The translations under genes and the position numbers were made by a program. The notes beneath the pieces are model-generated. The model was not told where the DNA came from. It made no database searches and saw nothing but the letters and a program-made list of their open reading frames with translations. A DNA stretch of 62,897 bases, the filler included. It is 8 parts of 8 records of this genome, joined end to end, with 100 filler letters (N's around TTAATTAATTAA, not from the genome) between each part and the next. Parts side by side here need not be neighbours in the genome. Positions count along the whole stretch, not along the records: positions 22,336 to 49,639 come from SRR20825010_4810; 7 more parts are not named here. The stretch is one strand, 5' to 3'. Positions 36,733-40,505 of this stretch are shown here, in pieces. The stretch's first letter is position 1. Each line of letters opens with the position of its first letter.

Positions 36733-38640
36733 TTATAACGCTTCGTCAATAATAGTTTGAACAACTTCTGGATTTAAAAGTGTAGAGATATCACCAAGAT
36801 TATTGGTGTCTTTCTCTGCAATTTTTCTGAGGATGCGACGCATTATTTTTCCACTTCGAGTTTTAGGAAGCCCTTCAGTAAATTGAATTTTATCAAGTTT
36901 AGCAATTGGTCCAATATGCTCTGTAATTATCTGATTAATTTCTTTCCGTAGATTATCATGCAAACGACTTTCTCCAGTTTCTTTAAGAATCACAAAACCG
37001 TACAGTGCATTACCTTTTACATCGTGTGGAAAACCTACAATTGCGCTTTCTGCCACCGCTGGGTGTTCATTGATAGCATCTTCAATTGGAGCCGTTCCCA
37101 AATTATGCCCAGATACAATAATAACATCGTCCACACGGCCCGTAATTCTATAATAACCTGTACTATCGCGTAATGCACCATCACCAGAAAAATAGTTGTT
37201 TTTAAAAGTTGAAAAATATGTTTCCTTATACCGTTGATGGTTCCCCCAGATAGTACGCGCCATTCCTGGCCACGGAAATTTTATACACAAACGACCGTTT
37301 ACTAGATTACCAATTAATTCTTCGCCGTTTTCGTCCATGAGCGCAGGTTGAATACCCGGTAAAGGGAGTGTTGCATAGGTAGGAATTGTAGGCGTAGAGT
37401 AGGGTATAGGCGAAATCATAATACCTCCTGTTTCAGTTTGCCACCATGTATCTACAATTGGGCAGTTTTTCTTCCCAATATTTTCGTCATACCAATGCCA
37501 AGCTTCTTCATTTATGGGCTCGCCTACAGTTCCTAAAATTTTTAATGAAGAAAGATCATAATTCTCAGAGAAATCCAAACGTTCCTTTGCCAACGCTCGA
37601 ATTGCAGTAGGTGCTGTATAAAATTGGGTTACTTTATGCTTTTCAACAACTTCCCAAAAACGTCCGAAATCTGGATATGATGGAACACCTTCAAAAAGCA
37701 CTGTTGTAGCTCCATTTGCTAATGGGCCGTATACTATATAACTGTGTCCTGTTATCCAGCCAATATCTGCCGTACACCAATACACATCATTTTCGCGGTA
37801 TTGAAACACATTTTTAAAAGTATAGGATGTATATACCATATATCCAGCCGTTGTATGCACCATTCCTTTTGGTTTTCCTGTAGAGCCAGAAGTGTATAAT
37901 ATAAATAGTGGGTCTTCAGCATCCATAATTTCTGGGGAGCAATCGGCACTAGCCGCGTCTAGTAAAGGTTGCAGCCATTTATCTCGATTTTCCTTCATGG
38001 GAATATCAGTGTGTATGCGCTTTGCAACTAAAACGGTTTCTATATTCGGACAAGATTCTAAGGCTTCATCAACTATAGCTTTTAAATTTATTGTTTTATT
38101 TCCGCGGAAAGAACCGTCACTGGTAATTACCATTTTGCAGTTAGAATCGATAATTCTAGTAGAAAGTGCGGTTGCAGAAAACCCAGCAAACACAACAGAA
38201 TGGATTGCTCCAATACGTGCGCAAGCTAATAATGAAACGGCCAATTCTGGAATCATCGGTAAGTATATACAAACACGATCTCCTTTTTTTATACCGTTTT
38301 CTATAAGCACGTTAGCAAATTTACATACGCGTTCATGAAGTTGCTTATAGGTTATATGTTCAGCTTTCTCTGAAGGGTCATTTGGTTCAAAAATAATGGC
38401 AGTTTTATCGCCACGTGTATATAAATGTCTGTCTAAACAGTTTTCGGTAATATTAAGTTTCGCCCCCTTAAACCATGAAATCTCTGGTTTGGATAAGTCG
38501 TATTCTAAGACTTTATCCCATTGTTTTTGCCACATAAAATTTTCTTCCGCAATTTCTCCCCAAAAGGTCTCGGGATCACGGACTGATTTTCTATACACTT
38601 GAAAATATTCTTCTAAATTTTTAATGTGGTAATTACTCAT
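36733..38640 (-). CDS. acs: Acetyl-CoA synthetase
   Basis: YTSGSTGKPKG, GEPINEEAW, DTWWQTETG, PKTRSGKIMRR. Confidence 0.97.
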   Translation of the reverse strand: MSNYHIKNLEEYFQVYRKSVRDPETFWGEIAEENFMWQKQWDKVLEYDLSKPEISWFKGAKLNITENCLDRHLYTRGDKTAIIFEPNDPSEKAEHITYKQLHERVCKFANVLIENGIKKGDRVCIYLPMIPELAVSLLACARIGAIHSVVFAGFSATALSTRIIDSNCKMVITSDGSFRGNKTINLKAIVDEALESCPNIETVLVAKRIHTDIPMKENRDKWLQPLLDAASADCSPEIMDAEDPLFILYTSGSTGKPKGMVHTTAGYMVYTSYTFKNVFQYRENDVYWCTADIGWITGHSYIVYGPLANGATTVLFEGVPSYPDFGRFWEVVEKHKVTQFYTAPTAIRALAKERLDFSENYDLSSLKILGTVGEPINEEAWHWYDENIGKKNCPIVDTWWQTETGGIMISPIPYSTPTIPTYATLPLPGIQPALMDENGEELIGNLVNGRLCIKFPWPGMARTIWGNHQRYKETYFSTFKNNYFSGDGALRDSTGYYRITGRVDDVIIVSGHNLGTAPIEDAINEHPAVAESAIVGFPHDVKGNALYGFVILKETGESRLHDNLRKEINQIITEHIGPIAKLDKIQFTEGLPKTRSGKIMRRILRKIAEKDTNNLGDISTLLNPEVVQTIIDEAL

Positions 38641-38702
38641 TTTTGATGTTTTTTAAAGGATACGTTTGGTAAAATTTGTTTCAATCAGAAATATATTTAA
38701 TT

Positions 38703-38734
38703 ATGAGGACTATTGAAACAAAATGAGGACTATT
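38703..38734. promoter_or_regulatory. Perfect 12-bp direct repeat, probable transcription-factor operator
   Basis: ATGAGGACTATT at 38703-38714 and 38723-38734 (20-bp period), 63-94 nt upstream of the acs start. Confidence 0.6.
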
Positions 38735-38820
38735 TTGATAAAAACTTTAACAGTTTTAATTATTAAAATAAATATCTCAAAGTTTTCCCAAATCATAATT
38801 CAAGCTCAAAAAAAATATCA

Positions 38821-38828
38821 TAGATTTG
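38821..38828 (+). promoter_or_regulatory. Bacteroidota -7 promoter element
   Basis: TAGATTTG (TAnnTTTG) 10 nt before ATG 38839. Confidence 0.7.
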
Positions 38829-38838
38829 CATCATAATT

Positions 38839-38898
38839 ATGAAAAAATTTCGCTCATATACTATTTGTAAGAAGCACAGAGAAATCTCTGGGATGTAA
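38839..38898 (+). CDS. Putative leader peptide 1 (19 aa, MKKFRSYTICKKHREISGM)
   Basis: ATG just after the promoter, in A/T-rich context; followed by a terminator. Confidence 0.6.
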   Translation: MKKFRSYTICKKHREISGM

Positions 38899-38919
38899 GG
38901 CGATTATATATATAATAAT

Positions 38920-38953
38920 AAAAGCGTTTCTCCCCAAAGAGAAACGCTTTTTT
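38920..38953 (+). terminator. Attenuator-type intrinsic terminator 1
   Basis: AAAAGCGTTTCTC-cccaaa-GAGAAACGCTTTT followed by TT. Confidence 0.85.
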
Positions 38954-38973
38954 AGTATAATAAATTAACTGAT

Positions 38974-39060
38974 ATGGAAAAAATGACACATATTAATATT
39001 TTAAAACATTCAATGCGTAAGTGTTCGAGTGCGTATATACCTATACATCAAAGTGAATAA
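38974..39060 (+). CDS. Putative leader peptide 2 (28 aa, MEKMTHINILKHSMRKCSSAYIPIHQSE)
   Basis: ATG in A/T-rich context 20 nt after terminator 1; followed by a second terminator. Confidence 0.55.
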   Translation: MEKMTHINILKHSMRKCSSAYIPIHQSE

Positions 39061-39080
39061 AAAAACAAAATAACAGTTTT

Positions 39081-39123
39081 AAAGTCCCTTTGATAATTCT
39101 AAAAATCAAAGGGATTTTTTTTT
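39081..39123 (+). terminator. Attenuator-type intrinsic terminator 2
   Basis: TCCCTTTGAT-N10-ATCAAAGGGA followed by T9, ending 13 nt before the yitT ATG. Confidence 0.85.
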
Positions 39124-39136
39124 AAATGAAATTAAA

Positions 39137-39997
39137 ATGAAAAACGTTTTCACAATTAAACTGGAAAAGCAATTAGTGCTTAACGAATTAAAAAGCTACA
39201 CTCATGTGTTTTTGGGGTCTCTTTTACTTTCTATAGCATATTCTCTGTTAATAATACCACACAATATTGTTCCTGGTGGAATTTTAGGACTGAGTATTGT
39301 TATTAAAGAGCTTACAGGGTTTTCTGTAGGTTGGATTGCGTTGTTTGTTAATATTCCATTATTGCTTTGGGGTACCAAAGTTTTAGGTGCTAAAACAGGT
39401 GTTAAAACTTTGTTTTCAATGGTTTTAGTTTCTTTCTATATTGATCTTATTTCATCTATTACTGGAGGAAAAATATTTATAGACGACGTTTTAATGTCTT
39501 CCGTCTTTGGTGGGGTAATTATAGGGGTTGCAGTTGCATTTGTTATGAATGCAGGAGCAACAACGGGCGGAAATGACATCTTGGTGCGAATTCTTTCTAC
39601 AAAATTAAAATTGCCTTACAATCAATTAATTTTAATTGTAGATGGTATTGTTATTATATTAGGCACAATTGTCTTTGCAGATTTTACAATGGCTGCTTAT
39701 AGTATTGTTGCAATCGTTGCAATCAGTAAAACTATTGAATATTTTATGAAGAAATCTGTCCAAAATAAAACCATCTTAGTGTTTTCAGATAAAAATATTT
39801 TGATTCAGGAAGAAATTCTCTTGAATAAAAAAAGTACTGAAGGAATATTAAAATTAATCCATCACGACAGTAATGAAAAAATGATATTAGTAACTCGAAG
39901 CACTAAAAAGTTGGATGTGGTAAAAGATATTATTTATAAAATAGACCCACGGGCAACTATTACTGTTTTGGAATCTAATAATTCCGCCACCCTTTAA
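39137..39997 (+). CDS. YitT-family membrane protein
   Basis: IVPGGILGL, VNIPLL, FGGVIIG.....GATTGG.D, C-terminal IDP. Confidence 0.88.
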   Translation: MKNVFTIKLEKQLVLNELKSYTHVFLGSLLLSIAYSLLIIPHNIVPGGILGLSIVIKELTGFSVGWIALFVNIPLLLWGTKVLGAKTGVKTLFSMVLVSFYIDLISSITGGKIFIDDVLMSSVFGGVIIGVAVAFVMNAGATTGGNDILVRILSTKLKLPYNQLILIVDGIVIILGTIVFADFTMAAYSIVAIVAISKTIEYFMKKSVQNKTILVFSDKNILIQEEILLNKKSTEGILKLIHHDSNEKMILVTRSTKKLDVVKDIIYKIDPRATITVLESNNSATL

Positions 39998-40003
39998 TAA
40001 AGT

Positions 40004-40038
40004 AAAGCCGCTTGCTAGTTAAATAGCAAGCGGCTTTT
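40004..40038. terminator. Bidirectional terminator
   Basis: AAAGCCGCTTGCTA-gttaaa-TAGCAAGCGGCTTT. Confidence 0.85.
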
Positions 40039-40070: not shown

Positions 40071-40505
40071 TTATGAAAGCCAACCATTTCTTGTGGCTCC
40101 TTTACTATAAAAGTATTCAAAAATTGCAATAGCTATTACTATAAGCGGCATAATAAGAGCAGTTGGTCCCATAACCGTTACTATGTCCATTGCAAATACC
40201 CAGTATAATTGTAAAATTAGAATTGCAACTAATGAGATTGCAAAAACTGCGATCGAAAACTTTTTACGCATAAGCAGTAGTATGGATGCTAAAAAACCAC
40301 TAATTGTAGCTATACCATAAACAATCATATTCCATGAAGGTGAATTATTCATTAGTTCCACTTGTTCTGGCGGCAAAGTAGCTTTTAGTTCTTCCGTCAT
40401 TAAGAAACTATCAGAAACCCACAAGAATACTCCGATTAAATTCCATAAAACGGCGAGCACGGCGATTATCCAAAAAGCTGTATTTGGTTTGGTTGCGGTT
40501 GTCAT
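40071..40505 (-). CDS. Conserved 4-TM hypothetical protein
   Basis: FWII..LWNLIG, PSW, C-terminal GWL. Confidence 0.75.
   Translation of the reverse strand: MTTATKPNTAFWIIAVLAVLWNLIGVFLWVSDSFLMTEELKATLPPEQVELMNNSPSWNMIVYGIATISGFLASILLLMRKKFSIAVFAISLVAILILQLYWVFAMDIVTVMGPTALIMPLIVIAIAIFEYFYSKGATRNGWLS

Follow-up and report, generated by a model that had tools for sequence, protein, structure and literature searches.

A tandem leader-peptide attenuator ahead of a flavobacterial yitT gene, possibly derived from methionine/cysteine leaders

A YitT-family gene in the 62,897-nucleotide stretch of DNA analyzed here (the window) is preceded by a real and conserved tandem leader, in which two short ORFs are each followed by an intrinsic terminator and whose mechanism is textbook in kind. 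On balance, the comparisons favor a reading in which this tandem attenuator is derived from the Met/Cys family of Bacteroidota leaders and YitT is a candidate sulfur-amino-acid importer. Both leader-ORF/terminator units would then act as ribosome-coupled transcription attenuators in series, each reading shortage of charged Met-tRNA and Cys-tRNA. A ribosome at the last 2–5 codons would cover the antiterminator strand so that the terminator forms; a ribosome stalled earlier, or absent, would leave the antiterminator in place and let RNA polymerase read through. Two serial units would multiply the read-through, making the response to a single signal sharper, and yitT would be transcribed mainly under methionine/cysteine starvation.

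All of the sequence features that a sequence-only reading of this DNA had named are present at their positions when the sequence is re-read (Table 1). The promoter is predicted from the TAnnTTTG consensus, which we take to be the Bacteroidetes-type −7 element; a sigma-70 scan of the window addresses the wrong promoter type and gave chance-level matches. The predicted fold of the 309-nt leader has an energy of −69.7 kcal/mol (z −5.95), a value equaled by 0 of 100 shuffles. The 3’ half of leader 1 folds more stably than shuffles in 30 of 53 loci, and the leader-2 hairpin is listed as weakly supported because only 18 of the 53 homologues beat shuffles. No Rfam family reaches its gathering score in the window yitT leader (best E 0.62, to unrelated families), and none exceeds threshold in five homologous yitT loci or in L001, the closest relative. 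Window positions 39126–39140 also hold a four-codon ORF (M-K-L-K) whose TGA overlaps the yitT ATG; it is readable in L001 too and absent from most other loci. On the far side of yitT, a strong hairpin (40004–40037) separates it from a convergent gene (40071–40505) for a 144-aa membrane protein with no Pfam match, and is likely a terminator shared by the two genes.

Table 1. Features of the tandem leader and the yitT gene (window coordinates).
Feature	Position	Strand	Remarks
TAnnTTTG promoter element (TAGATTTG)	38821..38828	+	predicted; Bacteroidetes-type −7 element
Leader ORF 1, 19 aa, MKKFRSYTICKKHREISGM	38839..38898	+	Cys10 codon at 38866–38868
Hairpin within leader 1	38877..38890	+	predicted pause or ribosome road-block
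Antiterminator strand, unit 1	38890..38902	+	spans stop codon; predicted to pair with terminator-1 5’ arm
Intrinsic terminator 1 (predicted)	38921..38953	+	stem 38921–38950, −15.7 kcal/mol; U-tract to 38953
Leader ORF 2, 28 aa	38974..39060	+	Met4, Met14 (39013–39015), Cys17 (39022–39024)
Hairpin within leader 2 (predicted)	39007..39031	+	holds Met14 and Cys17 codons; weakly supported
Antiterminator strand, unit 2 (ATCAAAGTGA)	39047..39056	+	last four codons; predicted to pair with terminator-2 5’ arm
Intrinsic terminator 2 (predicted)	39082..39123	+	stem 39082–39117, −14.9 kcal/mol; U-tract to 39123
YitT-family membrane protein gene, 286 aa	39137..39997	+	monocistronic; ATG at 39137; PF02588

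Conservation of both mini-ORFs, on which the sequence-only reading turned, is borne out among yitT homologues. A profile from 32 YitT proteins yielded 69 loci, and a tree of 66 rows (L049, L061, L062 and L067 left out) places 56 of the 69 in one yitT clade with support of 100. Leaving aside L049, which has 24 nt of upstream sequence, 55 clade loci are evaluable, and 52 of them retain the order promoter, ORF 1, terminator, ORF 2, terminator, yitT; L010, L042 and L055 keep a single unit. The record titles of carriers name Flavobacteriaceae, Crocinitomicaceae, Salibacteraceae and one Chitinophagaceae MAG, and no comparable tandem leader was seen at 13 distant yitT loci. Across the 53 tandem loci (window included), TAnnTTTG lies 12–20 nt before ATG1 in 50, the first leader measures 17–22 aa and the second 23–38 aa, the stop codon is followed by its terminator after 20–31 nt, and both terminator stems with their U-tracts are conserved. 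ATG1 is invariant in the alignment of these loci, the start codon of leader 2 is TTG in L024, and, for leader 1 and leader 2 alike, the remaining frames are closed in 105 of 106 cases. The proposal of a single promoter, with yitT transcription passing through terminator 2, also fits the comparison: TAnnTTTG occurs between terminator 1 and yitT in 0 of 53 loci. Three DNA contigs from one study are identical to the window over 38600–39400 and may be its source sample.

The peptide itself does not appear to be the conserved unit, because non-synonymous changes are numerous: among 17 close loci, codon differences number 847 non-synonymous and 240 synonymous in unit 1, and 1397 and 258 in unit 2. 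In this the yitT leaders differ from those of the arrest-peptide type, such as TnaC and ErmCL, which have a conserved peptide sequence.

What the leaders do preserve is predicted pairing between their 3’ ends and their own terminator 5’ arms, which the comparisons show together with covariation. In unit 1, cognate duplexes average −11.38 kcal/mol against −9.36 with permuted partners, and in unit 2 −7.95 against −7.59; 0 of 2000 and 31 of 2000 permutations, respectively, are as good, figures that are not clean probabilities, the loci being related by descent. Compensating changes are found in unit 2, where ATCGAA accompanies TTCGAT in L050, L051 and L069 and CCAAAG accompanies CTTTGG in L068. 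In the window, ATCAAAGTGA (39047–39056) resembles the terminator-2 arm ATCAAAGGGA (39105–39114). The covariation sought between each leader 3’ end and its terminator arm is therefore present, with cognate pairing better than permuted, and the assignment of AGAGAAA (38878–38884) as the unit-1 antiterminator has to be given up: that segment is able to pair with the terminator-1 arm in the window genome (−7.1 kcal/mol), but the stop-codon segment 38890–38902 pairs better in 51 of 53 loci. The 38877–38890 hairpin leaves this antiterminator unsequestered in the folding model.

Nascent RNA from the 53 loci was also folded with the ribosome footprint masked. In unit 1, the modeled probability that the terminator arm is sequestered is 0.75–0.80 while the A site is between codons −18 and −5 and drops to 0.07 once it is at the stop; in unit 2 it is 0.65–0.69 at codons −27 to −6 and 0.11–0.29 from −5 on. 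The alternative structures called for earlier would thus switch sharply at the last 2–5 codons. Naked RNA retains the antiterminator as well (P 0.72 in unit 1, 0.65 in unit 2), and the model contains no trp-type protector (1:2) helix that would terminate an untranslated leader; such a helix is a trp-type feature and not universal. Since untranslated RNA also keeps the antiterminator, termination would need a ribosome that arrives on time, and an earlier stall would give read-through. Conservation, frame retention and cognate antiterminator pairing together support the original suggestion of a ribosome-mediated attenuation geometry in both units.

The classical leader attenuators are E. coli trpL, hisL and leuL. 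The yitT leader shares with them a short ORF, an intrinsic terminator, an alternative helix and codons matched to function, but it has two serial units and no single-codon run, its antiterminator strand coincides with the stop codon or the final codons, its folding predicts read-through rather than super-attenuation when translation is absent, and its target is a membrane protein gene. The classical mechanism is summarized in the portion of PMC3641672 drawn on here. Closer in kinship are the leader-peptide elements of Flavobacterium psychrophilum ilvE, hisG and pheA, described in the consulted part of PMC9723704 with runs of Ile, His and Phe/Tyr/Trp; these come from the same bacterial family and likewise have an AT-rich spacer and a terminator 20–30 nt after the stop. 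The five ‘leader peptide’ places in the table seen from that source include no Met/Cys leader and no yitT, and its ilvE 5’ sequence reads by eye as three Ile-rich ORF-terminator units where the table names one. The his and pheA leaders of F. psychrophilum in the same material carry Cys or Met near their ends, which counts against a special Met/Cys connection for yitT. His-run and Phe/Trp/Tyr leaders like those of F. psychrophilum were also observed in Flavobacteriaceae at L078, L181 and L188 (his) and at L088 (pheA-like).

The codon content of the leaders bears on the signal. Composition was taken over 52 distinct first and 53 second leaders, rows that are related and not independent. Among internal codons, Met makes up 5.5% in leader 1 and 7.5% in leader 2 (last four codons trimmed) compared with 2.0% in neighboring genes, Cys 4.4–4.5% compared with 0.7%, and His 5.8–6.0% compared with 1.8%. 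Every one of the 53 second leaders has an internal Met, as do 46 of the 52 first leaders. Against position-wise shuffles, Met counts are 54 versus 24.4 ± 4.4 (unit 1) and 102 versus 47.2 ± 5.7 (unit 2), Cys counts are 43 versus 30.8 ± 4.8 and 61 versus 35.1 ± 5.0, and His is enriched too. There is no run of codons for one amino acid in the yitT leaders; 53% and 70% of the leaders have Met or Cys codons no more than two codons apart, compared with 12% of 1297 random AT-rich small ORFs. Met is also the commonest residue (42%) at the codon-12 distance from the stop among first leaders, a codon (38872–38874) that is AAG in the window and ATG in L001. Leader 1 of the window has no effective Met, its only internal Met being codon 19, itself under the antiterminator, and the first leaders of L006 and L050 have neither Met nor Cys; both facts weigh against Met/Cys sensing. 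Of the single Cys codon and KH pair per peptide that had been singled out earlier, the Cys codons prove relevant; conservation does not extend to the KH pair as such. Two further candidates were dropped: queuosine-type codon sensing, as Asp codons are almost absent (0.1–0.2%), and metal sensing through Met/Cys/His residues, which are not conserved in place.

Units 1 and 2 probably respond to a single signal rather than two. Whole-leader composition matches between units 1 and 2 (Met 5.5/6.7%, Cys 4.4/4.0%, His 5.8/5.5%), as it does in both units of the met-operon leaders described below, and this match argues for one signal, multiplied. The earlier proposal of a two-input AND gate with unknown signals consequently loses ground; we regard two different signals as very improbable. 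Serial terminators do both need read-through, leader 1 of the window has Cys and no effective Met where leader 2 has both, and a precedent exists in Salmonella mgtCBR, where, in the excerpted account of PMC3641672, mgtM and mgtP respond additively to different signals and have no intrinsic terminators. That system resembles yitT in having two leader ORFs in one 5’ leader before a membrane-protein/transporter operon, yet each yitT unit has its own intrinsic terminator and the two match in codon content over the 53 loci, the related met-operon units are both Met/Cys-rich, and L010, L042 and L055 keep one unit only. Tandems that repeat one amino acid are found before ilv genes: the three Ile-rich units read by eye in the F. 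psychrophilum ilvE sequence are one case, and L096 has two matches some 4.5 kb ahead of ilvC. At the L096 site (L096:1377–1619, minus strand, genome G003), at least two Ile-rich leader/terminator units were observed in series upstream of the ilv cluster.

The link to methionine genes comes from a covariance model of yitT unit 2 run over ~300 genomes (two sets of 150). Its 25 non-yitT matches comprise nine Met/Cys leaders, two his leaders and 14 ordinary gene-end terminators, and the top six are all Met/Cys leaders, lying upstream of metY or metX-like genes. Of the nine, seven stand before metY (TIGR01326 above cut-off), one before a metX-like gene, and one before a short ORF and cysH. In five genomes, the best second-site match lies upstream of a metX-like gene and is a tandem leader (peptides such as MKQSITSYNLSQMMVMCNMMMCQMMQQMLRYYPN); in L075 and L121 the order continues from metX-like (below cut-off) to aspartate kinase/homoserine dehydrogenase, sulfhydrylase and cysH/D/N, and genome G005 carries the tandem design at yitT and at the met operon alike. 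A reciprocal model built from 46 met-type units alone finds window positions 38998–39122 at 54.8 bits, with the next site at 22.9. It finds 18 of 20 yitT loci at 32.2–63.1 bits, two of these at 33 and 32.2, and scores five his/phe/ilv leader controls at 32.1 bits or less. Similarity is carried largely by terminator 2, and the unit-1 scaffold is generic, since an Ile-rich ilv leader obtains 54 bits from the unit-1 model and met leaders at most 41.7; both points tell against the Met/Cys reading. A metagenome pattern for terminator 2 returned 48 met-type, 5 yitT and 27 unrelated loci among the 80 of 100 stretches listed, with genes named from N-terminal likeness only; as it was written with both terminator types in view, it speaks to abundance and not to independent homology.

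Two loci look like bridges between the met-type and yitT leaders, judging by their sequence features: in L042, yitT is preceded by a met-type arm (GGTAA) and antiterminator (TTACCAAG), and in L055 by a single Cys/Met-rich unit, CMCMHRHMCLCL. Part order, ORF lengths, spacing, a near-identical terminator 2 and the placement of Met/Cys codons 5–20 codons before the stop are common to the yitT leaders and the Bacteroidota Met/Cys tandem leaders; terminator-1 sequence and a shifted antiterminator register set them apart, and the target is the YitT gene, not biosynthesis. They also differ in density. Met-operon leaders contain 15–21% Met and 9–11% Cys, with the Met/Cys cluster at 24–32% of codons and little His or AAG, whereas in yitT leaders Met and Cys together make up ~10% of codons, about one third of the met-operon density, and His, Arg and AAG-Lys are commoner. 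These differences in Met/Cys and in His, Arg and AAG-Lys are compositional points against the Met/Cys reading, under which the yitT leader would belong to the Bacteroidota family as a derived form rather than a typical member. It would have descended from a met-operon element with its Met/Cys codons thinned to about a third, giving a weaker or later response and possibly added His sensitivity. Early-branching yitT leaders are the richest in Met. The literature covered, which is without most subscription journals, describes neither a Met/Cys leader attenuator in Bacteroidota nor a yitT leader; the predicted attenuators that Lopatovskaya, Seliverstov and Lyubetsky surveyed in 2010 may include such leaders.

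Other arrangements were seen around methionine genes. In L232 and L252, before one aspartate-kinase-like and one metX-like ORF, met-type tandem leaders have many Met codons replaced by Lys (AAG), a possible retuning toward Lys/Met that resembles the yitT drift. L176 has a single Met-rich leader unit before metY, with a GC-richer structured stretch upstream that may be a riboswitch. In L147, L148, L150, L167, L168 and L169, a SAM-I riboswitch is followed directly by a short ORF before metY/metX-like genes; these ORFs end in a Cys/Met cluster, e.g. ...MMMHKTRCCSCC, ...MMFGMCCCMC and ...CYMCCHNYW, so that a riboswitch and a leader peptide may act one after the other. In L152, L154, L157–L160, L162 and L171, metK and metY are divergent, and most of these loci have a SAM-II (long loop) riboswitch back to back with a SAM-I riboswitch.

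Unlike the yitT leader, which reaches no Rfam threshold, the metY/metX genes of yitT-bearing genomes carry SAM-I (RF00162) in 19 of 20 upstream regions and at three further loci. With the met operon of most carriers under SAM-I, the yitT leader would sense the same nutrient at the level of charged tRNA. Leader ORFs with Cys codons ahead of sulfur-metabolism genes are also known from actinobacterial cys operons, whose Cys-rich leader peptides are single and without terminator hairpins in the part of PMC1262725 consulted, which reports no structure before methionine operons.

The same leaders can be read more broadly. In a possible, though unlikely, alternative, stalling at Met, Cys, His, Trp and perhaps Lys/Arg would open both units, and YitT would be, with equally limited likelihood, a broad amino-acid or small-peptide importer of protein-degrading bacteria. 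In the folding model, a stall anywhere ahead of the last codons leads to read-through. Met, Cys, His, Trp, Arg, Asn and Lys are over-represented in the leader bodies, as are the rare codons AAG, CGT/CGC and CCC; Asp (0.1–0.2%), Glu, Gly and Ala are nearly missing from them. Biosynthesis markers were found in yitT-bearing genomes as follows: metX in 27 of 50, hisD in 35 of 51, argG in 11 of 51, trpA in 37 of 48 and ilvC in 18 of 48; a MetX search over 151 order-level genomes gave three matches and was of little use. Leader pairs average 3.71 His codons where hisD was not found and 2.15 where it was (p 0.0005, n 14 and 34), and Trp codons make up 4.1% where trpA was not found and 1.0% otherwise, raw links that run the way a broad sensor would predict and are confounded by kinship and by incomplete MAGs, many of unstated completeness. 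Independent pairs give 3.6 same and 0 opposite of 5 for His (median p 0.125), 1.9 same and 0 opposite of 4 for Trp (p 0.5), and no link for Ile or Arg. Moreover, His, Trp and Met codons increase together in the same genomes, three Lacinutrix leader pairs have no His at all, and CAT/CGT and TGG codons often lie opposite ATG/TGT or TCC within leader hairpins, so that hairpin pairing may be an alternative cause of the His/Arg/Trp codons.

Host markers do not single out methionine either: Met-codon number does not track metX absence (3.17 versus 2.84, p 0.35), and no met/cys gene was recognized beside yitT in 69 loci (ORF listing, read from N-termini), both of which count against Met/Cys sensing. 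Gene neighborhood is not conserved over the 69 loci and offers no substrate clue, and 29 Bacteroidales yitT loci, judged by ORF N-termini only, gave nothing usable, 20 of them being without an Rfam match. In distant relatives, hutG lies directly upstream of the YitT gene at L054:958–2800 and L058:2956–4711 (Aminicenantes and Marinimicrobia MAGs), and the L057 YitT gene has a glutaminase upstream; the hutG neighbors favor the broad importer, and all three loci speak against a Met/Cys-specific one. A combined scenario, in which a met tandem attenuator moved onto the YitT gene and its codons were rewritten to the Met, Cys, His and Trp that the host is missing, seems to us rather doubtful. If true, the YitT clade would be an amino-acid importer of protein-eating Flavobacteriales, and YitT/DUF2179 would gain a testable nutrient substrate.

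YitT proteins are widespread, mostly without a known substrate. The window protein matches PF02588 (E 2e-49, 168 bits) and is 97% identical to a protein of Aequorivita sp. Q41; DUF2179 (PF10035) scores 19.8 bits, under its 22.8 cut-off, consistent with a degenerate C-terminal domain. An AlphaFold model (pLDDT 82, pTM 0.70) combines a helical membrane portion with a PII/CutA/DUF2179-like domain at the C-terminus, residues 208–286 matching DUF2179, CutA and PII folds with Z 8–10 and rmsd ~2 Å over 64–74 residues (DUF2179 structure 3hlu: Z 8.5, rmsd 1.6, 64 residues). Foldseek on the whole model gave no match at E ≤ 0.001, and a VIA structure search with the whole model matched the C-terminal domain only, with no solved relative of the membrane part.

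Antibiotic-induced leaders are known for ABC-F or efflux genes. By analogy, the yitT leader might be a general ribosome-speed sensor, in which slow codons and hairpins race RNA polymerase and translation inhibitors induce a YitT exporter. We consider this improbable. The race geometry without a protector helix and the enrichment of rare codons would suit it, as would the placement of YitT in the TCDB Novobiocin Exporter family in the part of a preprint consulted (10.1101/2021.08.21.457196), but it explains neither the likeness to met-operon leaders nor the internal Met in every second leader. Starvation-type induction, as expected of a leader derived from the Met/Cys family, fits import; the window YitT is a candidate Met/Cys importer, its transport role being read from the leader.

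The sequence-only reading had hoped that the leader could reveal the substrate of YitT. A starvation-type leader does name candidate substrates (Met, Cys, possibly His), together with an inducing condition, while the transport itself is deduced from the leader. YitT function would be directly testable in culturable Aequorivita, Xanthomarina or Lacinutrix. If the derivation is right, the finding would extend the Met/Cys leader-attenuator family from biosynthesis to transport and would present a leader caught in the course of changing its codon content.
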